Positions 26,901 through 47,900 of a DNA stretch of 64,000 bases are shown in pieces. The first letter of the stretch is position 1. Every line of letters begins with the position of its first letter. Under the pieces are notes generated by a model, which did no database searches, was not told the DNA's origin, and saw only the letters and a list, made by a program, of their open reading frames with translations. Location of the stretch: assembly GCA_964187785.1 (NCBI GenBank), contig OZ076409.1:13766001-13830000 (forward strand). The letters are read 5' to 3'. The position numbers and the translations under genes are program-made. This DNA is from Amphiscolops sp. MND2022. Its lineage: Eukaryota.

Positions 26901-29900
26901 ACAAGGACGAGGTCAAAGACATCTGCTTCCCAAGGTCAGCGTTCGAATACCGTTGCTCTGATTAAAATTCTCGGCACATCAGGAGAACAGTCGTCAATGG
27001 AACGGGTTGTCCAGTGCCTTTTTACTCTATGAAATATTTCATCAGAAAGATCAACTAAATTCTAAAAGCTCATCACTGCATATTTACCCACAAATATGCA
27101 AAATTTATCCTTACTTCATCAACTGTGTCTGTTCAAATTTGTAGCCGGTAGCCCACAACTATTTAAAATTTTAAACTTCATGAAATTTTCAGTAAAAGTT
27201 TTTAATATCAACCCTATTTTGGGTCCGAACACCCCCAAATTCGTATTTTTCAATGCTACATGTTTGGGTGAAATGGCCGCCAAAACTTTGATGAATCTTT
27301 CAAGCAGCTTGATAAAAGCTGTAAAAGTTGGTAATCTAAACGGTGGTCCGAGGCGAAGGTCCGAGACGGATGCCCGTTATTCTCAGCAGTTACAGACTGG
27401 ATGTTTCGTTTCAGCCAAACGAGTGCTCTGTTCCTCACTTGTGCGAAGGAGGATGTGAGGGTTTGGAGCACGGAGACTAACAAGGAGCTGCTGCGGATCC
27501 CTGTGACCAACATGTGCTGCAACGGGGTCTGCATCAAGGAGCCCGGAGACCTCATCATCACAGGTATGTCCGTGTTCAATGAACGTCATAGAAGAAACAC
27601 AAGACGCCCGCTAAGAACCGGGATATTTTCCGCTAAAAATGTAACGCATCATCACGGGTTCGAACCAAACTACCAAACTGCCAACTGCGCCATGGTGACT
27701 AGATTTTACTGAATGGAGTAATAAAGTGGAGATTTGGCAGTTCAGGTAACTGAAATAGTCAAGTATTTAAATTAGTCAAGTTACTAAAATAGTCAAGTGG
27801 AGATGAAGATCGTGGAGATTTGGCAGAATTCGGAAAAAAAACGCAACACAGATTATGATTTTCCTCCCCCATTATATGTGAGCGGAAAATAATAAATTTA
27901 CTTCCCCAATTCAGCAGGGTGGACGCCGAATAAGCAATTCTGCTTTTCTAAGTCGGCGCCCTTTCGAATACTATACCCCGTAGCAAAATATGATACCATA
28001 CTTGCAGCCAATGGTCAAGCAATGGTTGGCTTGAAGCTGTGGTTTCAGAGTGATTTGCACAAGGGTCACAAAAGGTCTGACTGCTCACCGTTGCTCTTTT
28101 TGTTTTTGCTTTTCTCCGCCGTATGCGTTGTTTTGTGTCAATTTTCACACTTCAATGAATTTTTGTCATTGATCATACCACTAAGCTAGGTATAAAGGAC
28201 TTGCTTAAAGCCTAATAATTGTGAGTTGGGAGATATTCGAAATTGAAACTGCTCCAGTACAGGCCGAATGCTCTAACCACTGCCCATGCTCCTACTGATT
28301 TTAGTATCTGAAAAGTAACGCTTTTGCGCCAACAAATCATGTTGGCATATTTTGAATTTTTTGGAAAATGTCCTCCGAATGATCGCCACTATTCAAAATT
28401 TATATAGATTACTTTGTTTCTAATTGTAAAAAACCGAATTTAGATTTTAGAAAAAGGTTTGAGGTACAGAAATTAGTGGTTGAGATACAATCTACCGGAG
28501 ACGTATCTTCTAAAACCAGATTCCTGCATTTGTTATTCCTAGATCTCGACTACTCTGTGAGATTTTTACTTTTAACGTATCTAAAATGCATGAGTTACTC
28601 AATTTTATTATTTAGTTGTATTGATATTTATTTTATACTTATTGAAGGGTGATCGATTACGTAAACAAATAGAAAGATAACTTAGCTTAAAAGGACGACG
28701 CGGCTCGTAGTATTCGTCATCTACTCGTCATCTAATGATAGCGTCGATATAAGCTGCGGACAATTCCGTTCCCAATAAGACCAGTGCTTTTGTAAATATT
28801 CTTTTGTTTCTTGAGGGCCAGCAGCGGCAGAGTACACCCATCTAGATAATTCTTCCCTCCCTTGTTCACGTAAAATATTCCGCCAAGTCGTTCGCCTAAC
28901 TCCAATTACATATTCGTCTAGCGTCCTTTTAATAATAGAATGATCGCGAGTATAAACAGCGTCCCAACCCGAAAGAACTGTCGGTTTAACATTATTCATC
29001 GTAAGTACTAAGTGTGTGCGCAGAGGAGGAATGTAAATTAAGTCGCCGGGACGTTGAAGATGGAAAGTGAAAAATGTAGCTTCTCGCGAGCGAGGACCTC
29101 GTTGAACTAGATTAATAAAACTGGCGACGTCATTATAACAACGCTCAAGTAGGCGAGAAGAGGTATTTGTTGTAGCGGCGCACCAGAGTTTAATACCCGT
29201 ATGTAAATAGGAATACGCAGCGCCGCCACCCACTTCGACGTGTGCTGGACTCAACCACGAACCGTGAATTAAAAGAGCTAGGCTACTAGTAACTTGTTGA
29301 TCTGAAAAGCACGAAGCAGTTAAACAATCTTTAAAGTCCATGTCCGCTTGAATTGATGAAGGAAAATGACGAGTAGCGGCGTTATCAGGACCATACGTAA
29401 TTCCAGTTAAAGGACGACCGGGGAGATTTTCAAAATGTTGCCAAGTAAGACTAGGAAGCTCGGTTAATTCTTTTAGTACGCCACGAGACTCAATATTTAC
29501 ATCAGAAAGTATACAAGGTTCAGTAGGGGAAATTGAAGCGAAATTTACATGTGTTAAAACGGGGAATCGCCGCCACCCCGAATGTATTATATTAAAATCA
29601 GGACAATCACGAAGAGAGAAAAGGACATCCATTTGTTCAACAGCATCAACGCTGCGAGTATTAAAATCAGAACTGTACTGACAATCACGGCTTTTACGCG
29701 TCATTATTATTAAACAAGACAAGTTATATTAACAGGATGGAGATATTAATACAAGACGAGTGAAATCACAACGTATGCAAAATGAATAGAAGAGTGTAGA
29801 TCAAGTCAAAATGCAGTGAATTGAGTAGCGTTCAACTAGCAGCAAGCGAGTGAAAGCGAGAAATGATTTTGGAAAGCCGCCGGCACTATACACACAGCCT

Positions 29901-32900
29901 TACACGGCCGCCACCCGCTATACGCTATACCGGTGGGATTAATACAACTAAAAGTTTGCGACGCGATTTCTCGAAGATGGTGAAAGATAGAAACAAACGG
30001 TTTTCACCATTCAAAACTACATCCAAAGGAGAGCTTAAGTCCGGAAGGGCATTAAAATCGGATGATTACAAGTTGGTGAAAAATGACATTGAAAATAAGT
30101 GCTTTTGGAAAATGACCAAAAATCGACTTTTCGGATTTTTGCAAAACTTAATTATGAAACGTCTAGTGAACCAAAATTATTCGGGATAGTCTTAAATTGA
30201 AGGTATAACAGTTCTTCAGTTACCCTAAAAAGGAAAATTGATAATATTTACCCAGTGTTGAGATCTCGATCAGAAATGGTGTAAAAACAGCGATTTTTGG
30301 CCTAAAAACGGCATTTTCAGCATGTGCGTTGCGATTGCTCAACGAATAACCAATGAAAACGCTCCCCAAGCTCAGCATAGATGTGGCGGGGGTCGGCGGA
30401 GGGAATGGCTATAGAATTAATGCTTAATATGAATTCACCGTAATACCCCGCCAGCGAAGAAAATGGAGACATAGGGAAATTCCCAAAAATCACGATTATG
30501 AAAACGCTAACCCCCCCCCGCACGTTTTGGAAGATATCCGGACCAAACTTACACCCAATACTCCTAAGACCTATGCCCACCTTGTGTTAAAAGGAAATCC
30601 GCCAAAACCTAATAGGAGTTGAGAAAATCGAGGGCAAAGTTGGAGGTCAGGACACAAAAATAGCCAAAATGACACTTTTTGGGAAAATGCAAATAACTTT
30701 TTAACCAACAATGATAGAATGCCCCCCAATAGCTCCAAATCCTCACAATTGAATGGACTAGCGATGTATATAGGCCCCCGGGCTGGTTCCCGAAGCCTCG
30801 ATGAGAAAATTGACCCGAAAGTACCCAAAAATTGACTTGTGGAGACACTGTTTTTGACCACTCCCACTTTGATGCCGTTTTTCTACCCGAAGGAGTCGAA
30901 ATACATAAATGTTGAATAGTAACGAATTTGTAGGCCTTGGATAGACCTTTCAGAAGATATAAACAGTTTTGGCCCCCAGGCACGGAAATACCCATTTTTC
31001 AACAGTTGAAAATGAACCTCAGAATTAGCCATTGTTAAAGGAAATGCATACATGTTTTTTTCGTTCCTTGGAATTATTGAGGGAGCACTCCAATCGATTT
31101 ATTTACAGCGGGACATTCCGCCAGTCATAGGAGGAGTCATTCACACGAGTTGATGACAACATAAGTTAGTAAAAACCGAAGATAAATGATCCGATGTTAA
31201 GACATCTAAGTTGACTCAGAACGTCACACCCCCTTATCTTAGGTGGCTACGAATGAAAACAACTAGACATTCTCAATAAACTCACTTAACCGAGCGTAAA
31301 AATTGTACCGAAAAGGATGATGATTAAATCACTTAGGAAAATTCCCGTAGAAATGAAAAATAACTGACAATAACGAAGTAACTCGGAGTCACGTGACTGA
31401 CCACTCGTCACGAAAGTGACTAAAACACCGAAGAAAACTGAAGTTAAGAAAAGTGGCCATATTTGAGGGCCACAAAGGGATATCAGAGCTAGAGAGCAGT
31501 TGATTACTTTGTCAAGCCAAGAAAATAGAGATTTCGTTCTTTGCAGAATTGGGAAGTGGGACTTCGCCAGATTCTGTCGAGATTGTTTTATTTTCTAACG
31601 CCGTGAGATTCGGGTTAGAGAAAGTTTGAGTTCAGCAGTACTTTAACTGTGGGTTAGCTTAGAGAGACTTTAGCGGAAGTTAATCCGTAGAAACGATACA
31701 GTCCGGGACAGTGAGATAGAGAGAATTCACTTCAAGAACGTTAGAGAAAGTACGGCGAGTTGAGATAATCTTTCATCGATCAATTTGATCACCTTTCAAT
31801 TCTTCCCTCGGGAATACTCATTTATCCTCCGGGATACGTTACCTGCTTTGTATCTAATAAATTATATGTACCCCAAACCATTGGAAATATATTACCATTT
31901 CTGTGGATTTTGTTGTTACCATTCTTATTGAAGTATTAACCCTCTATTATTGATTGATGTTTTAATAAAGCGAAGATTCGTCTTCTTCTAAATATTAGTT
32001 TTCTAACAGCGAGAGCACACGAGACAACCCCTTTGCAAGTCAACAGAATAAAACGGAATTCAGCACTATATGATGCAATAGAACCCCACCACCTCTGAAA
32101 TTATCTTTAGAGTTATAAATTTATGTGAATGCTCAGCCCTATCTTTGTCTCGTGGATAGAGGTACCCTTCGGTTTAATTGAGTAGTAGTGGAGCATTCGA
32201 CAGACTGTTAAAGCTACTTTTCAAAATTCTACATTGGCGCTCCTGGGTGGGCCTATTCCTTTATTTCTGTTGCAATCCCTTTTATCCTCGATTTACACCC
32301 CCTTCTTGCATTCCCTCAACTTTCCTTTGATTTTCCTAATTTCAATCTTCTTATCTTCCATCATCCTTGTTTTTTGGCTGCCCCCACGTCCTTTTCTCAC
32401 CCGCAGAGATGTCAGAAGAAGAAACCCACGACCTCGACTCGCCCCCCGACTCTTCCAAGCCCGCCGAAGGCGACGGCTCAGGTGGTAGTAAACCCCTCTC
32501 TAGTAAGTCAGCGTTTACTTATTCTTGGGATAAATATACGAACGAAAAAGAACGAAAAGAGACAGCGAAACGAAAATTGATGGATTTGATGTTGGAAATG
32601 GAACATGTAAAATTGGAGGCCGGATATGACTCAGACGAATCTTTATCATGTTACCCCGGGAGTAGTGGGAAAACTAAAGCAGTTTACCAAAAATCGCCTA
32701 TTAAACCAGAAAAATTTCCGGGAAAAGATTTTAATCGTTGGGAGCTCTGGGTTAAACACTACAAATCCGTCGTTAAAGCAAATGGTTGGAATGATCGCCA
32801 AGCCATTGCCGCATTGCCTGCTTGTTTAACTTCTTGGGCAGTGGAAGAATTCGAAACAGTTCCGCGCCGTTTTGTTGAAAAATTACCAGGCCAAACAGCA

Positions 32901-35900
32901 CCCCGCTTGGAGTGGTTGCTGGAAGAGCTGAAACCTAAAATGCAACAGTACCGCAGTAAACGGGCAACGCGATCCGAATTTAAGGCGATTCGTCAGCTAG
33001 AAAGTGAAAATCTAAAAGAATATGCCCGACGGGTCCGTCAATTGGGAGAATTAGCTTTTTCTGAAAAAACACTGGCTGAAAGGGACCCTGATCTGCGTGA
33101 TCAATTTTTGGAAGGACTTTTTGATTCTCGAATTCAACAGAAATTGTATGAAGATGAAACAGAGAGGAATTTTTGTGAAATCCTACAAAGAGCACAAGAA
33201 CTTGAACTGATTCAGAAAAATTCGGAAAATAAAAGGCCTCTTCGGGCCGACAAAATTCGATATTGTCAGGAAGATTGCGATCAACTAGACGTAGTTCGAG
33301 CTGGTTATCCCAACTCCAATAACCCCGTAATCGAAGAAAAATTTGCAGCCCTACAGACCTCAATGACTAACGTTGCAAGTCGCTTAGACCGTTTAGATTC
33401 CAATATCTGCAAACAGACTGACCTCTTTGTAAAACAAATACAAGATTTGCCCACCTCAATCTCCACAGCGATTGTGGGAGCATTGGGGAGTGCGCAGAGT
33501 CGCGGTGGTGTACAGTCGCAACAGTGGCAGTCCCAGCCTCTACTTTCTCAGTTAACTCCTAACAGTAGTGCGTCTCAAGTTAGGACAGGTTCGGGCCATG
33601 TAACTATAACTAATCCACCCCCCTCCGTTGCTGAGTGCTTTAGTTGTAAGGAAATAGGACATTTTGCCAGAGACTGCCCGCAGAGGGCTAAACAGGACCA
33701 TTTAAACTGGAAACGGCCGGGTGCGCAGTAGCAGGTTCCACCCGTGCTGGAGACCCCAACCCTCTTAGGTCTGCTACAATTCTTAACAAAGGTTCCACGC
33801 CGTATCACGCACGATCACGCTCCCGCAGCGCCGAAAATCGTTACGGAATTAAAAATAGATCGCGGTACGTAAACCCTAAAACTTGGGAAGAGATGTGCCA
33901 AGAATCAGGACCCGGAGGCTTTTATACTAATATCGAACCCCCAAATGTAAATAGTCCCCTAGTAGAACCCTCCGAAACCGGTTTTAATTCTTTAGAACCA
34001 GGATCCGTAAAAATCCTTCCGAAAGGAGACCCGGAAGAACTTGAAAAATTCAATGGGGTCAAAAATGCGTGCGCAAAATCTAATGAAAAGGAAGCCCCAC
34101 ATGCAATAGCTGCGGGAAAATTTGTCAAAGGTTCAGGCTTGCTTGTTCCCTATCAAGTCGAGGACCAATGCTGTTGGGCCATAGTAGACACCGGTGCGAG
34201 TAACAGCCTAATCAGTAGTACTCTAGCGACCAAGCTAGGAAATGAGATCGTTCCGAACCAAAGTTCGTTGATAGGTCCGGTAGGCAACGTTATGTCCACT
34301 AGAGGACTCATGAAGGCAATGGTGAAAATTGGAGATCTCGTTGCCGAAGACGAATTCGTCGTCGTTGATGGATTGTACCCAGAAGTCCTGATGGGACTAA
34401 AATTCATGATAGAAAGCAAAATTTATCCGAACGTTGTATCGCAAGAGCTCGTGATCAAAAAACCGGACCGTTCTACGGTCGTAGTGCCAATGCAACTCGG
34501 CGGAAGACATGTCCCTTCCCCTGGAAACGAAGCTTATGTGTTCGACACAATACCCGCTCCAGACCATGTCTCTGTGGCCACCGAACTAAACGACGAATTA
34601 GAGAGAGACGTTGACGAAATTCTCAATTTAGCCACGTCGGATCTCGAAAGTGCCGAAATAAAGGAAGAACTGCGAACGCTGATTCGCGAGTATCGTGATG
34701 TGTTTTCCCTACCTAAGGACCCTCTCGGGACAGCGGTAGGAATTGAACACAAAATTGATATAGAGAACTCGCCGCCAATAAAAATTCCTCCGTACAAAAT
34801 CGCTCCACATAAATTAGATGCGATCCGAGCCGAAATTAACGAAATGATAGAAAAGAAAGTAATCGTTCCGAGTAAAAGTCCGTATAGCAGTCCGATTGTT
34901 ATGGTCCCGAAGAAAGACGGCTCTAATCGGATGTGCATCGACTATCGTAAGTTGAACGAAGTGACAGTGAAGGATGCGTATCCGTTGCCGCGGATCGGCC
35001 AGACGATAGACGCGCTACAGGGAGCGGGAGTTTTCTCGTCCCTTGACTTGGCCAGCGGCTATTGGCAAATCCCTGTCGCACCGGAGGATCGTCATAAAAC
35101 AGCGTTTTGTACTCCCGATGGAGGACTCTATGAATGCTTGAAGATGCCGTTCGGCTTGACCAATGCTCCTCCGACGTTCCAAAGATACATGAATGATGTC
35201 TTCAAGGAATTTTTGTATCAGTTCGTGTTAATATTTCTTGACGACGTCTTGACATACAGTAAAACACCGGAAGAACATTTAGCACACCTGAGGAAAGTAT
35301 TTCAAGTATTGAGAATGGCCGGTTTGAAATTGAAGCCAAAAAAATGCAATTTGTTCCAAAACGAAGTTCACTATCTCGGCCACGTCATTAACCAAAAAGG
35401 CATTCAGCCAGACCCGAAAAAGTTAGAAGCCATTCGGACATGGGAACGACCGAAAAATGTGACACAAGTCCGCTCATTCACGGCATTTTGCAATTACTAT
35501 CGGAAATTTGTGAAAAATTTTGCCGAAGTGGCTCGGCCACTCTACTTGCTAACTAGTAAAGGAACGAAATTTACGTGGAACGACGAACACGAAGAAGCTT
35601 TTTGTACACTCAAGGAGCGACTGCTAGCCGGTCCAATACTAGCATTTCCGAATTTTTCGCTCCCTTTTGTGATTGATACGGACGCAAGCGAAACTGCTCT
35701 TGGAGCAGTGCTGTCGCAAGTAGTAGATGGAACCGAGTACCCGATTGCTTTCGAGTCTAGAGTATTGACAAAAACCGAAGTGAATTACGCCACTACTAAA
35801 CGGGAAGCTCTCGGCGTAGTCCAAGCCGTGCAGTGGTTTAGACCGTACATATACGGAACGAAGTGTATAATTAGAACGGATCACGCGAGCCTCCAGTGGC

Positions 35901-38900
35901 TATTCCGGCAGAACGCCGACGGAATGACGTTCCGAATGATCCAAAAGCTGCAAGAGTACGACTACAAAATAGTGCATCGAGCAGGCCAACACCACTGTAA
36001 CGCGGACGGATTAAGTAGGCGGCCAAACGACGTGCCAGAATGGATGCCTGGCGAGGAAGAGGACTTGAGAGGTCCCATTCCCGAATTTGAAAATTTTGAC
36101 ACCGCGCTACTAGATGCGGAACAGGATGTTAAGTCAGCCCGAAGCAAGAAAAACGATGCGAACGAGGACGACGAGTTCGTAAATAGACACGTGCGTTTAC
36201 ATATCCACCGTCCACCGAGGGAAGTCGTCCGTTATAAGACCGGAGAATTTATTAACGCTGGGGACGCGCTAGTCCTCTGTGCATCTGCCGAGATGCGCGT
36301 GCTTAATCTCCCAATGATAACTTTTGTATGCAGGTATTCCCATTTGCGACCGCTGCCCGAGTCATTGAATCAAGTCGGTGGATTTCTTGTGTATAGAGAC
36401 GAAGAGAAGGCGCGATACATCTACGTGTTGATAACTAGAAAAAACGAACACAACGTAGCCACATACGATGATTTGAAAAAGTGTTTAAGGCGAATGTGGT
36501 CGCATGCGAATATTCATGGAGTGTCGGCTTTCGCAATGCCTAGGATAGGCTGTATCGATGACCGTTTGGAATGGATTAACGTGGCAATTTGCTTAGAGAC
36601 AGTGTTTCAAGGAATGTATTGTACGGTAACGGTTTACACTCCCGAACAAGATTTACCGCTATATCCAAACGTAGAACCTCGGACATCGACTAGTCGTTCC
36701 CGAGACCCTGATACGTGCTGCGCCACGGCGATGCCGGAGGAAATGTTATCAACGGGCCAAGTGGGAAGGCGTATATCGTGGACTAAATCCGATAGCGACC
36801 TGGCTAACAAACAACGCTTAGATCCAGCGATGGGAATCCTTTTCCGAGCTATGAAGGATGCAGAATTGTCCCTAAGCGACTCGATGGCTAATCTCGGTCT
36901 TAATCCGATTTCCAAGGAAACAGCGTTGTCATGGAACTGCCCCGAGGCATTGGAACTGTGGAGCAATTGGGAAAGTTTAGCATTAGAAAACAACGTATTG
37001 TATCGAAGGTGGCGTCCCAATAACCGCACACATGAAGTTTGGCAGGCAGTCGTGCCAAAGGAAATGAGAAAAGAGATCCTCTATCAGTTACACGACTCGC
37101 CATTGAGTGGCGGTCACTTCGCTGTAGAAAAAACTTTAGCACGCATTAAGCAACGATTTTGGTGGCCTGCTTTACGTTCGAGCGTAGAGATGCATGTAGC
37201 GAGTTGTCTTCGCTGCGCAGCACGTTCCACAGCCGGGAAGCCGCGGCGAGCGGAACTGCATCCTTTCGAGGTGCAAGCGCCGTTTAAAGTAATGGCGGCC
37301 GACATTCTAGGACCAGTCACGTTAGCAAAGCGCTCGTTGTCCAAGTATATATTAGTAATGTCTGACTTGTACACTAAATACGTTGTGGCGGTTCCGCTGA
37401 AAGACATGACGGCTACTACAGTAGCAACAGCGATAGTAGAGGAGTGGATTACTAAGTTCGGCGCTCCCGACGTGGTTCACACCGACCAAGGGACGAACTT
37501 TAATAGTGAAATGATGCACGACGTCTGTAAAATTTTCATGATTGATAAGACAAGAACGTCCCCGTATCATCCACAAGGCAATGGACAAGTCGAACGATTC
37601 AATCGCGTAATTGCCGACACAATTTCCAAGTATTGTGCAGAAAGACCTCAGGAATGGGACTTATATTTGCCGCATGTTGTTTTTGTGTATAACACTACGG
37701 TGCATAGGACGACAGGAACGACCCCGTTCTCGATGTTGTTCGGCAAAGAAGCGCAGTATCCAATCGATTTGTATTATCCAAAACCGCCTGGCGATCCTCG
37801 TTTAGAATTAAGCGAACCAGCCGCTGAATTGAATGAAAAATTGTACGAGGTGCATGAACATGCGCAAATGACTATGGGGAAAGAACAGCGCCGTCAAAAA
37901 GACTACTATCATCGCAAAGTACACGGCGAACCATTCGAACCAGGAGATCTCGTGTGGCTATTGGAACCGCATAAGGCAAAGTCGCGAAAGTTTTACTTGC
38001 CGTGGCAAGGTCCCTATGAAGTCTTGAGTCGTACCAGCGAAGTCAATTACCGTATCTGTAAGAAAAGTGCTCCCGAAAAATGGCAGAAAGTCCATTTCAA
38101 TCGGTTAAAACCTTTCGTCGGTGATACTCCGCCTCGCAGATCCGAACGCCGAAAGAAACTCGTGGTCTCTAATTACGAAGAATTGCCAAATATTTCAGAG
38201 GAGACTGAAAGTGAAATAGATGGTCTCCCATTCAATGTGTTCAACCCGACAACCGCTGAATCACAAGCCGCTCGTAACAAACCGCACGTGACGTTCGATG
38301 ACGTACCGAAAGTCGCGGAAAAGGCAAGTGACGAAGAATGCCCCGAACCTAATCCCTTATATGTTGACATCCCCGAAGGATCAGTCGCTGATCAAACTCA
38401 TGTTTACGAAGAGATTTCGGAGGGTGGTGACCCCTCTCCGAGAATAGAAGAAGTAGAAGCGAGCGAGAGTAGCTCGGAACCTTGTAGGTCCCGGCAACGT
38501 AAACCGCCCGTTCGTTTCGGAATCGATGACTACACCTCTCGGCGAAAGTAGCGCCGAAGACTCCGAATAGGTCGTTTAGCGAGTATGACCGCTCGGAGTA
38601 CTGCAAACTCGCCCTCGTATTGAAAGCCGATTAGGCTGACTAAAATACGGACGCCAATCGGTACGTGAAGTGATGATCACCTTTTGCGACGCACGCTCGT
38701 GAACGTTCACCACTTCACATTTTTTTGTTTTATACGCCAGTTGCCTTCTTGCCTTGAATACTTCTTAAATAATACAGCAGCTCTCCTCTGTATTCGAAGT
38801 TCTCCACAATACCTCATCAACTAACAAAAACAAAAAAATATATATATATATAGTTCCTCCTCGAATTAGTTAGCTTAGGGTGCTTAAACCCCTTGAAACC

Positions 38901-41900
38901 ACCCCATACTAAAGATGAAAACCGTATTATTCCTTGTGTTATACCTTATTTTTGGTATTTTTGGGCAAAACTCGTTCGATCCTTACGATTTTCAGAGGAA
39001 ACTCGGAAGACCCGGTATCGTTAACGGAACTCATTCAATCTCCGGAGCGGCTTTTACTCCTGAACCTCCGGTGGTGCTTGTCAAGGCAGTAAAAACGCTG
39101 TGGACTTTCCTCCCCTTTCCCCAAGTGCCCCACTTAGACCCGGAGCCGTTGAACCGAATCTTAGAAAATGCGCTAAACCGGTTGACCGACCTAGACCTAC
39201 GGATGTTTTCGCGAGAATGCGCTGACCCTCATTTGTTTAAATATTGGAAACGCTTTTTGCAAGACAACCTAGCGGAAATATTCCAAAGCCATCGAATGTT
39301 CCAGCACGATTGGCTGGCCATGAAAAAATCGCTAACAGTGTTCCTCAATCATACGGTCGATGATGTTCCCACCGGCAAACCTGACCGTTTATCACGATCC
39401 GTTGTTGGCGCGATCGCCGGATCGATGTTAGGGAGTGAGCTATCGCGAATTTTTCTTCGCCCCCTTTTCCAACCTTGGTCCGATTCAGTATCATGTTTTG
39501 TGGACAAGTTAATTCCGTTCGGTTCCACATGTAAGGAAACAGATCGCCGAAAAATCGAAGAGTTGGCCCGGAAGGTCGAGTATTTAGAGGAAACTGTGTT
39601 GTACCTGAAAACAGAGTTGCTTGAAGCGCTCACGGTTCAAATGCCGGTAGATGTCAGTACTAGGGAGTTGGTTGCACTTAAACAGACCGTGGATGAAAAT
39701 GTGCAGATGTTAAACGGAACGATTAACAGTGTAGTAGACGAAATTTACGATTACGTGGAAAAAGCGGAGTGCGTCGCGAGACTAACTCAAGATCGCCATC
39801 GAAACACCTTGATAATGGCGGCAGCGTTCCAAAACCTAACCACTCAGTATCGACGCATAGTAAATGATATTAATCAGAGACGAATTTCGCTAGCAAATAT
39901 GGCATCCATTTTGCAGGACGCTATGTCTTCTTTGGTGCACGGATATCTGCCGATATCTTTAATCCCTCCGTCGACGTTGGTAAAAATACTTGATTCCTTC
40001 GACGTAAACGGGTTAAACGAGGCTATACCCAGGAAATTGATCGCCGCCTATTACTCTTTTGAGGTAGTCAGGGACGCATATATATCGAATGAAGGATTGC
40101 ATCTTTTGTTAGAAATACCCATGTATACAGGACATGGAGTGCACGAGGTATATAGAGCTACCCCCATCCCTCAGCCCATTCCAAACACTGAAAGGGCTAC
40201 GCAGTATCAACTTAGTAAAACACACTTGCTAATGTCGTGGGACAAAACCAATTTCGCGGAGGTTAGTGAACAGGAACTTTCGACGCACTGTTGGGGCTCT
40301 CACCGCCTAAGACTCTGTAAACAACCCTTTTCAACCACGAAATCGCAAAAGACCTCCTGTCTAACGGGTCTGTTCTTTAATCTGCCTGCCACCGTTCTGA
40401 AACTATGTGCTCAAGAGGTCGTGGCACTCCCTCAACACCCTCAGGCGGTATATCTTTATGACTCTACATATCTCCTAACGTCCGCAAAGGGAGATTTCAC
40501 CATTCAGAACATGACTGCTCGAGCAGAAATAAGAGTACCGGGCTGCCAAAGTTGCTTAGTAAGGCCTTCCTGTAATGGGCGACTGCAACTCCCAAATGCC
40601 GGGTTATTCCTCACTCCCGACCCTATTAGTTGTATGGAAACTGACAGTAGTGAAATCGTTCGCATTTTACCCACTCCTTTGCTACGACCCCTGTTTGACA
40701 ATTTAAAATCCCTCGAAGAAGTCATCCCTCCCTCGTTAATGGGAGACGTCCACCAGGAATTACTTTCTCATTTAAAATTGAATTTAGCTGGTTTACCGGA
40801 TCGAGCGGTGACCGAAGAGATGCTGGATGCAATTGCGCAACCCTTCCTAGTGGAGGTGGAAAAGGTCTATTCGACCGTCATCAGAAAGATTTGGAAGGAT
40901 GTTATTCTCCCATGCATTGTTACTTTACTTATGCTTATACTTATAGCTGTTGTGGGGTGGACGGTCAAGTGGGGGAAGATGTATGCTGTGCGACGGTGGA
41001 TGACAGCAGTGCTGCGCGGTGGCGAAGTACAACGCGACACGGCGGCTGCTGTAGACGACGTCCACGAGGAGTCACGTGAGACCACTCCAGTGCCGACGCA
41101 ACAACAGCCGGCAACTTCGAGTGTGCACGAAGCAAAGACAGGTCCACTAAAGGAGTCACGTAAGATGCCAGGGAAGTGAGTTCTCTGTGACGGAAATCGT
41201 AAGCCGAACATAAAACTCCTAACTCAAGCTCCGCCCCCATATTTATTTGCCTCATTTTATATGCAACGATATTTAATGCATTCGCGTGATATTTGTTTCC
41301 TTTCTTTTCTGGTTGAATGCTTTCGCTCGTGCGAGCGCAAAAATTTCTTTTGTGTATCCCCTCCCGACATTATTCATTCGCGCGAGCACTTGTTTTCTTT
41401 CTCCTCCACTTGAACGTCCGAGCGGACAATTAAGTCATAAAATAACGAACGAGTCACATGAGTTAATCCGATTAAAATTGCAGTGCCGAGGAACGAAATA
41501 GCGTCTCGCCATTTAGCTCTAAATTTTTGCAGTATCCAGACGCTCAATCTACAGCTTAGAAAAAAAAAATCATTACATAAACATACATATTATTAAACCT
41601 TGTTTCATCACTTGCACACTAAAAGAAAAAAAAACTATAATGCAACCTATTCGCCCAACACCACTTAGAACAAACCGCCCTATTGCCACCAGCCAGACGC
41701 AGGTCTCTCAAATGTACAACCAACCGCCGCCAGAAGTCCAGCAGGCGTATTTACCCGCCGAAACAGGAGTGCTGCCATTGATTGTTCGAGCTGGAACCCC
41801 AATCGCCACTTATCGCTTGAACAAGATCGAAACACCACAGGCGAACGGAGACCAAATCTACTTTCATGTAGAAAAGTTTTGCACCATGGATGCGCTGTGG

Positions 41901-44900
41901 TACCCCCAGTGGCTGACTCTTAGCCTCTACTGCCAGTTGACGAGAGACCTCTTGCTAGCGGTTGTGCAGGCGGCGTTGGAGCGTCCGGAGCGGGCGCATT
42001 TTATGGCAACTTTTGCCAGGATCCTTGCGCTGCCAGATCAAGGCCCACAGGCAGCAGGCAACCCATTGTCGACGCGGTTCCACTGGAGGGGCCCCATGCA
42101 CGAGACAATGTGGCAGTGGCTCCAACAGGGGGAGAGCCCCTGGGATGTGCCGTTCCAAGTGTATCCTCAACCCCCAGCCCGGCCAAGAGTGGATATGAGA
42201 TTTTATTCAAGGGCGATGCTGCCCTTCGTGACGGAAACCCCGGCTACAACAACTGCCGCCACTTCGACGGGGACAACCACCACCCCTACTACAACGGGCT
42301 CGTCGACGGAGGTAGTCATCGCCGATCAAATGGAGGAGGCGGACTCGGGCAACGTCAGTGACGCCGGCTCCGCTGCCACCCACGTTACCTTCCTGCCCCC
42401 AAAGAAGCGAGCCATGAAAACCCAGCCCCCTACCAGCAGTTAGGCTAAATACTAACTCCATTTTTTGAGTGTGTGTTGCGTTAGATTTTCGTACTGATAA
42501 TTTTCGTACATCATATTATTACACATGGATCCTATTTATTCAATGCGTGTGGAAATATACTAAACATTAATAAAACTTGTGCGTGCTTCTTTCTTTTACA
42601 TAGGAAATAGCTATTTCGTTACTCGGCACAAAAATAAAATTGAAATTACCGCTACTCGGGAGAGTAGCAGTCCAAGTGGGGGGGAATGTGAGATTTTTAC
42701 TTTTAACGTATCTAAAATGCATGAGTTACTCAATTTTATTATTTAGTTGTATTGATATTTATTTTATACTTATTGAAGGGTGATCGATTACGTAAACAAA
42801 TAGAAAGATAACTTAGCTTAAAAGGACGACGCGGCTCGTAGTATTCGTCATCTACTCGTCATCTAATGATAGCGTCGATATAAGCTGCGGACAATTCCGT
42901 TCCCAATAAGACCAGTGCTTTTGTAAATATTCTTTTGTTTCTTGAGGGCCAGCAGCGGCAGAGTACACCCATCTAGATAATTCTTCCCTCCCTTGTTCAC
43001 GTAAAATATTCCGCCAAGTCGTTCGCCTAACTCCAATTACATATTCGTCTAGCGTCCTTTTAATAATAGAATGATCGCGAGTATAAACAGCGTCCCACCC
43101 CGAAAGAACTGTCGGTTTAACCTTATTCATCGTAAGTACTAAGTGTGTGCGCAGAGGAGGAATGTAAATTAAGTCGCCGGGACGTTGAAGATGGAAAGTG
43201 AAAAATGTAGCTTCTCGCGAGCGAGGACCTCGTTGAACTAGATTAATAAAACTGGCGACGTCATTATAACAACGCTCAAGTAGGCGAGAAGAGGTATTTG
43301 TTGTAGCGGCGCACCAGAGTTTAATACCCGTATGTAAATAGGAATACGCAGCGCCGCCACCCACTTCGACGTGTGCTGGACTCAACCACGAACCGTGAAT
43401 TAAAAGAGCTAGGCTACTAGTAACTTGTTGATCTGAAAAGCACGAAGCAGTTAAACAATCTTTAAAGTCCATGTCCGCTTGAATTGATGAAGGAAAATGA
43501 CGAGTAGCGGCGTTATCAGGACCATACGTAATTCCAGTTAAAGGACGACCGGGGAGATTTTCAAAATGTTGCCAAGTAAGACTAGGAAGCTCGGTTAATT
43601 CTTTTAGTACGCCACGAGACTCAATATTTACATCAGAAAGTATACAAGGTTCAGTAGGGGAAATTGAAGCGAAATTTACATGTGTTAAAACGGGGAATCG
43701 CCGCCACCCCGAATGTATTATATTAAAATCAGGACAATCACGAAGAGAGAAAAGGACATCCATTTGTTCAACAGCATCAACGCTGCGAGTATTAAAATCA
43801 GAACTGTACTGACAATCACGGCTTTTACGCGTCATTATTATTAAACAAGACAAGTTATATTAACAGGATGGAGATATTAATACAAGACGAGTGAAATCAC
43901 AACGTATGCAAAATGAATAGAAGAGTGTAGATCAAGTCAAAATGCAGTGAATTGAGTAGCGTTCAACTAGCAGCAAGCGAGTGAAAGCGAGAAATGATTT
44001 TGGAAAGCCGCCGGCACTATACACACAGCCTTACACGGCCGCCACACGCTATACGCTATACCGGTGGGATTAATACAACTAAAAGTTTGCGACGCGATTT
44101 CTCGAAGATGGTGAAAGATAGAAACAAACGGTTTTCACCATTCAAAACTACATCCAAAGGAGAGCTTAAGTCCGGAAGGGCATTAAAATCGGATGATTAC
44201 AAGTTGGTGAAAAATGACATTGAAAATAAGTGCTTTTGGAAAATGACCAAAAATCGACTTTTCGGATTTTTGCAAAACTTAATTATGAAACGTCTAGTGA
44301 ACCAAAATTATTCGGGATAGTCTTAAATTGAAGGTATAACAGTTCTTCAGTTACCCTAAAAAGGAAAATTGATAATATTTACCCAGTGTTGAGATCTCGA
44401 TCAGAAATGGTGTAAAAACAGCGATTTTTGGCCTAAAAACGGCATTTTCAGCATGTGCGTTGCGATTGCTCAACGAATAACCAATGAAAACGCTCCCCAA
44501 GCTCAGCATAGATGTGGCGGTGGTCGGCGGAGGGAATGGCTATAGAATTAACGCTTAATATGAATTCACCGTAATACCCCGCCAGCGAAGAAAATGGAGA
44601 CATAGGGAAATTCCCAAAAATCACGATTATGAAAACGCTAACCCCCCCCCGCACGTTTTGGAAGATATCCGGACCAAACTTACACCCAATACTCCTAAGA
44701 CCTATGCCCACCTTGTGTTAAAAGGAAATCCGCCAAAACCTAATAGGAGTTGAGAAAATCGAGGGCAAAGTTGGAGGTCAGGACACAAAAATAGCCAAAA
44801 TGACACTTTTTGGGAAAATGCAAATAACTTTTTAACCAACAATGATAGAATGCCCCCCAATAGCTCCAAATCCTCACAATTGAATGGACTAGCGATGTAT

Positions 44901-47900
44901 ATAGGCCCCCGGGCTGGTTCCCGAAGCCTCGATGAGAAAATTGACCCGAAAGTACCCAAAAATTGACTTGTGGAGACACTGTTTTTGACCACTCCCACTT
45001 TGATGCCGTTTTTCTACCCGAAGGAGTCGAAATACATAAATGTTGAATAGTAACGAATTTGTAGGCCTTGGATAGACCTTTCAGAAGATATAAACAGTTT
45101 TGGCCCCCAGGCACGGAAATACCCATTTTTCAACAGTTGAAAATGAACCTCAGAATTAGCCATTGTTAAAGGAAATGCATACATGTTTTTTTCGTTCCTT
45201 GGAATTATTGAGGGAGCACTCCAATCGATTTATTTACAGCGGGACATTCCGCCAGTCATAGGAGGAGTCATTCACACGAGTTGATGACAACATAAGTTAG
45301 TAAAAACCGAAGATAAATGATCCGATGTTAAGACATCTAAGTTGACTCAGAACGTCACACCCCCTTATCTTAGGTGGCTACGAATGAAAACAACTAGACA
45401 TTCTCAATAAACTCACTTAACCGAGCGTAAAAATTGTACCGAAAAGGATGATGATTAAATCACTTAGGAAAATTCCCGTAGAAATGAAAAATAACTGACA
45501 ATAACGAAGTAACTCGGAGTCACGTGACTGACCACTCGTCACGAAAGTGACTAAAACACCGAAGAAAACTGAAGTTAAGAAAAGTGGCCATATTTGAGGG
45601 CCACAAAGGGATATCAGAGCTAGAGAGCAGTTGATTACTTTGTCAAGCCAAGAAAATAGAGATTTCGTTCTTTGCAGAATTGGGAAGTGGGACTTCGCCA
45701 GATTCTGTCGAGATTGTTTTATTTTCTAACGCCGTGAGATTCGGGTTAGAGAAAGTTTGAGTTCAGCAGTACTTTAACTGTGGGTTAGCTTAGAGAGACT
45801 TTAGCGGAAGTTAATCCGTAGAAACGATACAGTCCGGGACAGTGAGATAGAGAGAATTCACTTCAAGAACGTTAGAGAAAGTACGGCGAGTTGAGATAAT
45901 CTTTCATCGATCAATTTGATCACCTTTCAATTCTTCCCTCGGGAATACTCATTTATCCTCCGGGATACGTTACCTGCTTTGTATCTAATAAATTATATGT
46001 ACCCCCAAACCATTGGAAATATATTACCATTTCTGTGGATTTTGTTGTTACCATTCTTATTGAAGTATTAACCCTCTATTATTGATTGATGTTTTAATAA
46101 AGCGAAGATTCGTCTTCTTCTAAATATTAGTTTTCTAACAGCGAGAGCACACGAGACAACCCCTTTGCAAGTCAACAGAATAAAACGGAATTCAGCACTA
46201 TATGATGCAATAGAACCCCACCACCTCTGAAATTATCTTTAGAGTTATAAATTTATGTGAATGCTCAGCCCTATCTTTGTCTCGTGGATAGAGGTACCCT
46301 TCGGTTTAATTGAGTAGTAGTGGAGCATTCGACAGACTGTTAAAGCTACTTTTCAAAATTCTACATACTCGTAAATAGTCCTCATATCTACGAAAAACAT
46401 GAGATTTGACATTTGAAAAACGGAAATAGATTGAATGGAACCGAAAAAAACTTTTTGAACATTAAAAAGCTTGCAGGCGAGGTGTGTATATAATATCTTT
46501 GATTGTTCCTGCTCTCCTGTTGTTAGGCTGGAGTGACAACACTGTGAAGGCGTTCAAGCCACAGTCTGGAAAGCTGGCGTGGGAGATCACTCTGGCCCAC
46601 TCGAACGAGGTGACTGCCGTGAACGTGACGTCAGACGGGAACCGCGTCATCACTGGCGGCGGAGAGGGCAACGTCAAAGTGTGGAACATCTCCAACCCCA
46701 AGAAACAGGTTAATAAACTTTAAGCGCATAAAACAAGGCAAAGTTTCTAGGAGTCGGAAAATTTTTCGACTTATGCAATAGTACCTTTTTTCTCCCAACC
46801 TTTCAATAAAAATTTCTCTAAAACTGTGCATACGATTATTATAAAATTTAGCATAGTCATTCTACACCCAAAGGTGCTTCTGCGTGCGCAATCGAATCGT
46901 AAGACTGGGATCTGAGAAACATTGCCAAAATTAGTCTAAAAGAGACCAAATGACAATGAAGTAGGTAATTTGTTTTTCAATATTCAAATCCGTTTCCGAC
47001 TTCTTTTCTGCACTTGCAGCTCTGGTTAAAAGAGAAAGCCATTGGGTTTTAAGGTGTAAAAATAGTTGAATTCCCTCTGAGTATGTGTCACTTGACCGAC
47101 GTACGTTTGAAACATAAAACAGGTGAGTTTAATTTAGCATAATGGTGGATAATGAAATTGCTTTCTTCAACATTCCAATGTTCAAGGGTATTTCAATGTT
47201 GTTTCACGTTTTGAAGGGCAACTTTTTCCCGGTAAGAGTCAATTTATAATTTTTGAAGTTTTGTTTGTGTGCAGCAGCTATCATTTATCATATTAGAATG
47301 TAATTTTCAACGGCTTCCACAAAATCATACCAGCGCTTCATACCAGTTTTAACTTTGATGTGATTCCGTAAAATAATTGGCGAACTTTGCTTCCTTGTGC
47401 ATGGAATTCATCCCTCGTGATCCCTGGTGTGGATTTTGTTTCAAAGCGGTAGCAATGAAGGGTTTGTGTGACTGACCAATTTCATAGAGATGCAGCTCCG
47501 AGAACAAAAAAGTCGATTTGTCTTTGCTCGCCGAATGCAACTCGTCGAAATTAAAGGGCGGAAAACTGGTCGAAAATCAACTCGTCGAATAATTACAGAT
47601 TACCACCACGGATTATCCAGTGCTAATCATGGATAAATTTTCCTTAATTGATGCGTGAAATTTTCAGTTTTACGCATAATATAGCTTTTTTAGTTATATA
47701 ATTGCTTGAAATGTTTCACTTTTACAGTGACAGTCCAGTACTTCATAATAATTTAGAAGCTCATAACACAGTACAATCACAAAATAAGCACTAAATTTGT
47801 CTCAGATTTTTTTCTGTTCTTGCGACGAGTTTTCCGCCGGAGAATTTTCGGTGAGTTGTTTTCGACGAGTTTTCCTGGGTTCGTTTTGAATATAGCATGA

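Follow-up and report, generated by a model that had tools for sequence, protein, structure and literature searches.

A TARG1-type macrodomain with an altered ADP-ribose pocket within the Pol of an apparently intact Ty3/gypsy-type element of Amphiscolops sp.

Results

The element and the position of the macrodomain within Pol

We analysed a 64,000-nucleotide stretch of contig OZ076409.1 from Amphiscolops sp. MND2022 (hereafter the window, to which all coordinates refer), which carries what is apparently a very young and intact Ty3/gypsy-type retroelement of 17.8 kb with a gag-pol-env organisation. The youth and intactness of the element are judged from the identity of its two long terminal repeats (LTRs), from its ends and from its gag, pol and env frames. 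Within the pol frame, between the RNase H and the integrase, the element encodes a macrodomain of the TARG1/OARD1 type, and it is this domain, together with the departure of its ADP-ribose pocket from the pattern found in nearly all of its relatives, that is the subject of the present work. The features of the element that are needed to place the domain are the following:

28556..32233, forward strand: 5' LTR of 3.68 kb, TG...CA, delimited by blastn of the two ends
32235..32253, forward strand: primer-binding-site-like sequence TGGCGCTCCTGGGTGGGCC, one base past the 5' LTR
32409..33731, forward strand: gag, with a CCHC zinc knuckle (Pfam zf-CCHC, E 7.4e-7)
33701..33707, forward strand: slippery heptamer T TTA AAC in the gag zero frame, where pol overlaps in the -1 frame
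33692..38551, forward strand: pol, encoding protease, reverse transcriptase (RT), RNase H, macrodomain and integrase in an open frame of 1,619 codons
35576..35959, forward strand: RNase H (Pfam RT_RNaseH_2, E 1.1e-32; RT_RNaseH, E 3.7e-31)
36221..36640, forward strand: TARG1/OARD1-type macrodomain, Pol residues 844–983, after the RNase H
37052..38113, forward strand: integrase (Pfam Integrase_H2C2, E 1.5e-19; rve, E 1e-12; Integrase_p58_C, E 2.2e-10)
38897..41179, forward strand: env-like frame of 760 codons, with the env-like ORF at 38915..41179 and hydrophobic stretches in its N-terminal and C-terminal parts
42674..42686, forward strand: putative polypurine tract AAGTGGGGGGGAA, adjoining the 3' LTR
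42687..46365, forward strand: 3' LTR, TG...CA

The two LTRs are 99.84% identical over 3,680 aligned columns (blastn; 5 mismatches and 1 gap), and the element is flanked by a 5-bp target-site duplication, TACTC. From its position and its TGG start, we infer that TGGCGCTCCTGGGTGGGCC is the primer-binding site; expression of pol would presumably proceed by -1 frameshifting from gag at the T TTA AAC heptamer. The LTR ends, the target-site duplication, the primer-binding site, the polypurine tract, the CCHC-containing gag and the order of protease, RT, RNase H and integrase in Pol are all those of a Ty3/gypsy-type element. Pfam placed the protease at Pol residues 144–240, the RT at 405–566 and the RNase H at 629–756, and further downstream the zinc finger (1121–1179), the core (1196–1294) and the C-terminal SH3 domain (1418–1474) of the integrase. 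The nucleotides at 36221–36640 were translated into 140 amino acids without encountering a stop codon. Translation and the Pfam order together bear out the claim, made earlier from the letters of the DNA (the original prediction), that a domain of about 140 amino acids lies in frame between the RNase H and the integrase.

Homology and fold of the macrodomain

A phmmer search of all Protein Data Bank (PDB) chains with the 140 residues returned human OARD1/TARG1 (4j5q) as the sole strong match (E 1.2e-18), the next chain having an E-value of 0.24; residues 14–140 of the macrodomain were aligned with residues 21–145 of the 4j5q chain. On the same 140 residues, the generic Macro model of Pfam (PF01661) scored 17.6 bits, which is under its 22-bit cut-off, and for this reason the match can be regarded as specifically TARG1-like. 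A full HMMER scan of 1.84 billion representative proteins with the macrodomain gave 679 proteins at E <= 1e-3, including 58 at E <= 1e-10, and the identity between the window macrodomain and the OARD1 entries of shark and birds was 33–37%.

An AlphaFold2 model of the macrodomain was generated with a 58-row alignment as the input, resulting in a mean pLDDT of 93.1 and a pTM of 0.88, with every residue at 70 or higher. When the model was compared to the PDB using Foldseek, ranks 1–8 were all occupied by TARG1 structures (TMq 0.84–0.89, 34–36% identity), the best being 4j5q with an E-value of 4e-14 and a TMq of 0.89; the macrodomains of DarG, Poa1p, alphavirus nsP3 and ALC1 followed. Viral structures appeared from rank 13 onward and, with PF01661 below threshold, the window macrodomain does not belong to the MacroD/viral type. 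The structural comparison that the original prediction had proposed thus recovered a macro fold, the three-layer alpha/beta/alpha sandwich, at a Foldseek TM of 0.89 to TARG1, and the predicted homology stands on phmmer, AlphaFold and Foldseek alike. The window domain is a genuine TARG1/OARD1-type macrodomain, carried in frame within Pol between the RNase H and the integrase.

Two other origins of the similarity were considered. We rejected both a chance resemblance and a chimeric exon of the host on account of the E-values, the continuous reading frame and the number of copies. A chimera of assembly or annotation was ruled out by a search of the element's own genome (1.07 Gb) with the 140-residue macrodomain as the query, which gave 1,246 first-look candidates; 150 of these were scored and all of them had E < 1e-49.

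Residues of the ADP-ribose pocket and the active site

Residue numbers of human TARG1 are taken here to equal the chain position plus 6. In the phmmer alignment, CISEDCRMGAGIAVLF of TARG1 stands opposite CASAEMRVLNLPMITF of the window, LITKK opposite LITRK, and PRIGCGLDRLQW opposite PRIGCIDDRLEW. The window equivalents of Gly41, Ala42, Gly43, Ile44 and Ala45 are Leu, Asn, Leu, Pro and Met, respectively. Lys84 is replaced by Arg, Gly123 by Ile and Leu124 by Asp; Ser35 and Asp125 are kept, the latter at position 114 of the window macrodomain (P0001). The residue-level claims of the original prediction were all reproduced in this alignment, namely that the catalytic Asp is retained within IDDRL (GCGLDRL having become GCIDDRL), that the catalytic Lys is lost through a change of ITKK to ITRK, that the Gly of GCG is Ile, and that VLNLPM takes the place of the MGAGIA loop. 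By the standards of TARG1, therefore, the window copy possesses catalytic Asp125 and lacks both catalytic Lys84 and the pocket glycines.

In human TARG1, residues G43, I44 and G123 are described as lining the ADP-ribose pocket, and each of the substitutions G43E, I44E and G123E as causing the loss of both ADP-ribose binding and hydrolysis (PMC5928194). The same source locates RNA binding by human TARG1 outside of the pocket and describes the pocket mutants as still binding RNA. A K84A version of the human protein is described as inactive (PMC8501950).

Alignment A1 brings together P0001, two copies from a sister subfamily of the window family, and 55 hits selected from the 150 listed for a length of no more than 230 amino acids and for coverage of most of the query. 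The residues found in the 52 rows outside the window family (referred to as family A where it is compared with other families) and in the rows within it are as follows:

Gly43: outside the family, Gly in 52/52; family rows, Gly in 0/5
Gly123: outside the family, Gly in 51/52; family rows, Gly in 0/6 (Val or Ile)
Ile44: outside the family, Ile in 46/52; family rows, Pro in 4/5 and Leu in 1/5
Ala45: outside the family, Ala in 49/52; family rows, Met in 4/5 and Leu in 1/5
Lys84: outside the family, Lys in 50/52 and Arg in 2; family rows, Lys in 4/6, Arg in 1 and Ile in 1
Asp125: outside the family, Asp in 51/52; family rows, Asp in 5/6 and Asn in 1

The changes at G43, I44 and G123 are common to the whole window family and absent from the other macro-bearing retroelement families of the genome. 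Depending on the lineage, the pocket loop of the family reads LNLPM, ATAPM, KTEAM, TTAPL or KSSPM, and in one of these lineages position 43 is occupied by Glu. The best-conserved stretch of the family is PRIGC[VI]DDxLEWxNVAICLE along with the core strands, the pocket loop being less so. Judging from these alignments, the ADP-ribose pocket of the window family departs from a near-universal TARG1 pattern.

The window family in its own genome

Approximately 60 of the 150 scored family matches lie within open frames of at least 1,600 codons. Four copies, in open frames of 1,614–1,619 codons, have a macrodomain identical to that of the window. Decayed copies of the window lineage (L005–L007; 85–93% identity) also read ITRK or TTRK, and Arg84 is accordingly old within this lineage. 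Since four identical open copies are present and the LTRs are only 0.16% apart, the chemistry of Lys84 is not needed for the spread of the window lineage.

The rest of the 150 scored matches belong to the sister subfamily, which is approximately 60% identical to the window macrodomain. A complete sister element (L013 and L014) has 3.1-kb LTRs, a gag and a 1,610-codon pol; just 1.5 kb separates its pol from the 3' LTR, which leaves no room for an env. We examined 25 sister copies, made up of the first 20 long-frame copies among the scored matches and L008–L012; these are 93.6–100% identical to each other and are thus not independent lineages. All 25 have Lys at position 84, Asp at 125 and Val in place of Gly123, and their loop reads MRVAT(A/T)P(M/L). 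The original prediction had suggested aligning related elements to see whether the Lys, Gly and Asp are intact elsewhere, and the outcome was divided: Lys and Asp are intact in the sister subfamily, but the pocket Gly is missing family-wide.

A word-indexed protein search supplied seven Pol relatives. Within the family, the change from Lys84 to Arg is confined to the window lineage, Lys being present also in P0007 and P0010; the relatives P0011 and P0013 are without Lys84 or Asp125. The P0007 lineage was not found in the own genome, where its best match was 60%, and because of this absence it must come from another genome.

The conservation of these residues bears on the possibility that the domain is a still-active ADP-ribosylhydrolase with an altered substrate or linkage (e.g., ADP-ribose on nucleic-acid ends or bases), which would protect the RNA, cDNA or proteins of the element against ADP-ribosyltransferases of the host. 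The loop changes would then have retuned specificity, and Arg84 would leave enough activity or binding. Such a role would be consistent with the conservation of the Lys84, Asp125 and Ser35 equivalents in most lineages of the family, with the purifying selection on the macrodomain described below, and with the removal of ADP-ribose from DNA by TARG1 and DarG as described in PMC8501950; the canonical domains of sister families, which make an eraser the likely ancestor, point in the same direction. However, the two universally conserved pocket glycines have been replaced, and these are positions at which substitution abolishes binding by human TARG1. In addition, the pocket loop is variable among the lineages of the family, one of them having the Glu43 that kills human TARG1, and Lys84 is Arg in the very lineage that was recently active. 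We consider continued hydrolysis to be possible but doubtful.

Selection on the macrodomain

The window Pol was compared with a sister Pol, domain by domain, for amino acid identity and for the proportions of nonsynonymous (pN) and synonymous (pS) differences:

Macrodomain: 62% identity, pN 0.247, pS 0.80 (saturated), 140/140 codons aligned without a gap
Protease: 58% identity, pN 0.278
RT: 90% identity, pN 0.068
RNase H: 88% identity
Integrase core: 80% identity
Linkers flanking the macrodomain: 62% and 53% identity

Among the 25 sister copies, which were picked for long open frames and many of which are near-identical, the pooled pairwise pN/pS of the macrodomain was 0.175. Taken together, these codon comparisons indicate that the macrodomain is under purifying selection, at about the level of the protease and more weakly than the RT; the domain is therefore not junk.

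If the domain were a neutral passenger, functionless for the element and decaying since its capture, the loss of key pocket residues would be expected, and P0011 and P0013 have gone as far as to be without Lys84 or Asp125. Against this, the 140 codons have remained free of indels over a divergence that saturates the synonymous sites between the subfamilies, with pN far below pS, and pN/pS is low among the copies as well. The predicted structure is confident and well folded, and the domain has been retained in lineages of at least one other genome, as represented by P0007. We regard the passenger explanation as very improbable.

Other macro-bearing retroelements

A second search of the own genome was aimed at the host OARD1 gene and used a shark OARD1-like protein (P0027) as the query. 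Among its 961 candidates, the 150 scored were all uninterrupted, 36–50% identical to OARD1 and mostly located in large open frames. The host OARD1 gene was not found among these 150 of the 961, all of which are intronless copies in transposon-like frames. Six regions were retrieved and scanned, giving the following families:

Family B (L040): gag, 1,646-codon pol and env; macrodomain at 856–991, in the gap between RNase H and integrase
Family C (L041): 1,617-codon pol and env; macrodomain at 833–968, in the gap between RNase H and integrase
Family D (L042): 1,853-codon pol; macrodomain at 320–451, before the RT
Family E (L044): 1,852-codon pol; macrodomain at 1655–1791, after the integrase
Family F (L043 and L045): frames of 826 and 845 codons; macrodomain at 607–744, after the protease
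Family G (L036): 315-codon frame; macrodomain at 179–313

Families B–G all retain M[GS]xG[IVF]A, L[IVL]TK and IGCG[LN]DxLxW. At least five further retroelement families of this genome thus carry a canonical TARG1 macrodomain, at four positions of the polyprotein. Among the 150 listed library hits, 36 have a length of at least 300 amino acids and were likewise analysed with Pfam; in three of the 36 the macrodomain is joined to retroelement domains. P0131 (XP_076269006.1), which comes from the beetle Rhynchophorus ferrugineus and is annotated as uncharacterised, contains RT, RNase H, macrodomain and integrase zinc finger in that order. The two others are metagenomic and have the macrodomain at the C-terminal end: in P0104 it follows RNase H and integrase, and in P0154 the accompanying RT match is weak (27.3 bits, below the cut-off). 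All three possess the canonical M[GS]xG[IVF]A, L[IVL]TK and GCG[LN]D motifs.

Through the macrodomain, the Pols of the window family and of families B and C are collinear (34% over approximately 1,200 residues), and the same holds for beetle P0131 (32–37% identity). In the macrodomain itself, however, the window family shares only 24–35% identity with the other families, with the minimum of 24% for family D, and the macrodomains of families B and G are 46–53% identical to vertebrate OARD1. Macrodomain trees were computed from 118 and 125 rows and 140 columns by a quick method with SH-aLRT values as the only support. In these, the window family forms a single clade (SH-aLRT 100), whose branch, at 1.27 changes/site, is longer than any other inner branch, families B, C and F are joined (SH-aLRT 99), and D and E are unresolved, so that a single origin is compatible with the trees. 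The four polyprotein positions would argue for several insertions or rearrangements. The distance between RNase H and integrase was dropped as an argument for insertion, because families D and E have 214–300 amino acids there without a macrodomain.

The variety of positions is relevant to the proposal that the domain could mainly bind nucleic acid or dock a protein, as a spacer that separates RT-RNase H from integrase, with no ADP-ribose-like ligand involved. This proposal could draw on the RNA binding of human TARG1, described as lying outside the pocket and as persisting in pocket mutants (PMC5928194), and on the fact that family conservation is highest in PRIGC[VI]DDxLEWxNVAICLE and the core strands instead of in the pocket loop. 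The conservation of Lys or Arg and of Asp would nonetheless be left unexplained, and the presence of the domain elsewhere in the polyprotein of sister families argues against a role at the junction of RNase H and integrase. A pure spacer therefore seems to us quite unlikely.

Family F was also found to have a protease and a macrodomain with no RT or integrase in the frame (L043, G000:C5:30713418-30723417), and two of its copies start 6.4 kb apart. It looks like a gag-protease-macro element and may represent a non-autonomous or a tandem arrangement. Among the library proteins, the TARG1-like domain is joined to ATP-dependent DNA ligase, LIG3-type BRCT, NADAR or TatD DNase domains in P0080, P0033, P0152, P0069 and P0127; these fusions would fit a nucleic-acid repair context for the TARG1-like branch.

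Other reading frames of the element

No Pfam family was matched by the env-like frame of the window. It is 31% identical to the env of family C over 330 amino acids (E 1e-41), and the latter in turn scored 23 bits against Pfam Baculo_F (E 3.6e-5), below the cut-off of 24.1 bits. By tblastn, the window env also matched the env open reading frames (ORFs) of L040 (family B) and L044 (family E), and in the ESM Atlas it was associated, at 0.93 and as a lead only, with Baculo_F/Fusion_gly clusters. It is probably an env of the baculovirus-F/errantivirus type, as far as these similarities go. Three additional frames were observed:

41523..42443, forward strand: frame of 306 codons without an explanation, between env and the 3' LTR
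28721..29704, reverse strand: antisense ORF of 327 amino acids, JmjC/cupin-like, inside the 5' LTR
42852..43835, reverse strand: second copy of the antisense ORF, inside the 3' LTR

The 306-codon frame is rich in Pro and Thr at either end, and neither a Pfam family nor a match in the other fetched elements was found for it. Pfam JmjC matched the antisense ORF weakly (E 0.037), and the ESM Atlas linked it, again as a lead only, to JmjC clusters at 0.97. A homologue occurs in family E (L044:6258-7403), likewise antisense and downstream of pol, with 26% identity over 174 amino acids (E 3e-15) and with the HxE...H motif kept. A sequence search of the PDB gave no match for the window env or for the antisense LTR ORF.

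Discussion

A proposed remodelling of a captured macrodomain

The reading that we favour, and to which we would give about an even chance, is that the window family carries a captured eraser that has been remodelled into a non-hydrolytic binding or structural module and is kept by selection. The original prediction had left a choice between a divergent anti-ADP-ribosylation module acting on the cDNA/integration complex and a catalytically dead domain repurposed for binding or target-site tethering; the comparisons sharpen this choice, and both the action on the complex and the tethering are conjectures. Since the pocket is remodelled throughout the family and the catalytic Lys is replaced in the window lineage, the window domain is likely not a hydrolase of the TARG1 type. 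An eraser role is likely to be ancestral, since families B–G, P0131, P0104 and P0154 keep the canonical motifs. At its capture, the domain would have removed ADP-ribose and so shielded the proteins or nucleic acids of the element from ADP-ribosylation by the host, much as RNA viruses use their macrodomains, and the sister families, with their canonical domains, would still possess erasers of this kind. Family A would have shifted later to a non-hydrolytic role or to one with an altered ligand, which could be ADP-ribose-like, or else a nucleic acid such as human TARG1 binds outside its pocket.

Several observations weigh against this reading. Lys84 is kept in all of the 25 sister copies as well as in P0007 and P0010, and Asp125 and Ser35 are kept almost family-wide, a pattern more readily understood if catalysis goes on in the Lys-bearing lineages, at least outside that of the window. 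The human pocket mutants had Glu in place of Gly, and binding might survive a replacement by Val, Ile, Ala or Leu. Arg at position 84 is also found in 2 of the 52 other TARG1-like proteins of A1. Finally, the 25 sister copies were picked for long open frames and many are near-identical, so that they do not count as independent lineages.

A wider view may be taken, in which ADP-ribosylation would be a general animal defence against reverse-transcribing elements, and LTR elements would have repeatedly captured TARG1 erasers at no fewer than four positions. As a further step in this arms race, the window family would then possess a neofunctionalised macrodomain with a rebuilt pocket, which would either recognise another modified ligand or serve, without hydrolysis, as a reader or decoy, steering or shielding the complex of reverse transcription and integration. 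We put this forward tentatively and think it unlikely.

The occurrence of TARG1-type macrodomains inside the Pol or Gag-Pol of many retrotransposon families from a single genome, as well as in beetle and metagenomic elements, would point to a pressure from ADP-ribosylation on reverse-transcribing elements. Within this setting, the window family amounts to a natural experiment, in that a macrodomain that is selected and well folded does without the pocket glycines. It also offers natural variants in the form of an active lineage with Arg84 and an abundant sister lineage with Lys84. A comparison of these variants would bear on what a retroelement needs the domain for and on whether TARG1-like domains can become readers.

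Comparison with known systems

One of the closest known systems is human TARG1 (OARD1/C6orf130; PDB 4J5Q, 4J5R, 4J5S and 2L8R), which has the same fold and approximately 34–36% identity, and shares PRIGC...LxW, Asp125 and Ser35 with the window domain. Human TARG1, however, is a stand-alone protein of 152 amino acids, whereas the window domain is embedded in Pol, with Gly43, Ile44 and Gly123 replaced and Arg in place of Lys84. Families B and C and beetle P0131 share with the window Pol the order of RT, RNase H, macrodomain and integrase; unlike the window family, families B–G, P0131, P0104 and P0154 have kept both the glycines of the pocket and the pairing of Lys with Asp.

In positive-strand RNA viruses, macrodomains are known to serve as erasers in counter-defence and are thought to reverse antiviral ADP-ribosylation. 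Those of coronaviruses (Mac1), alphaviruses (nsP3), hepatitis E virus (HEV) and rubella virus are likewise located inside the replicase polyprotein of a selfish replicator. They are, however, of the MacroD type, with the alphavirus domain appearing from Foldseek rank 13 at 13–16% identity, and the replicator that carries the window domain, unlike these viruses, is reverse-transcribing. The macrodomain of bacterial DarG belongs to the same TARG1-like branch, that of ALC1, TARG1 and DarG, as the window domain (Foldseek ranks 10–12, TMq 0.78–0.83), but the two are only 16–18% identical, and DarG acts in a toxin-antitoxin context with its lysine intact. This catalytic Lys is described as the equivalent of Lys84, and DarG as removing ADP-ribose from thymidine in DNA (PMC8501950).

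Our search of full-text literature found no description of a TARG1-type macrodomain in a Ty3/gypsy Pol, the sole precedent found being the macro-domain ORFs of fish retroviruses. Some epsilon-like endogenous retroviruses of fish are described as having further ORFs that encode macro-domain or CNPase proteins (PMC4977317, citing Basta et al., 2009). They constitute a precedent for a macrodomain in a reverse-transcribing element of animals, but are of the Retroviridae type and carry it in additional ORFs. Other folds are described as captured by Ty3/gypsy elements, namely a chromodomain in the chromoviruses (10.1101/2021.11.30.470311) and an m6A demethylase domain in orchid elements (PMC9289625). 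These captures follow the same pattern of host-domain acquisition as is seen in the window family, with other folds and other presumed roles.

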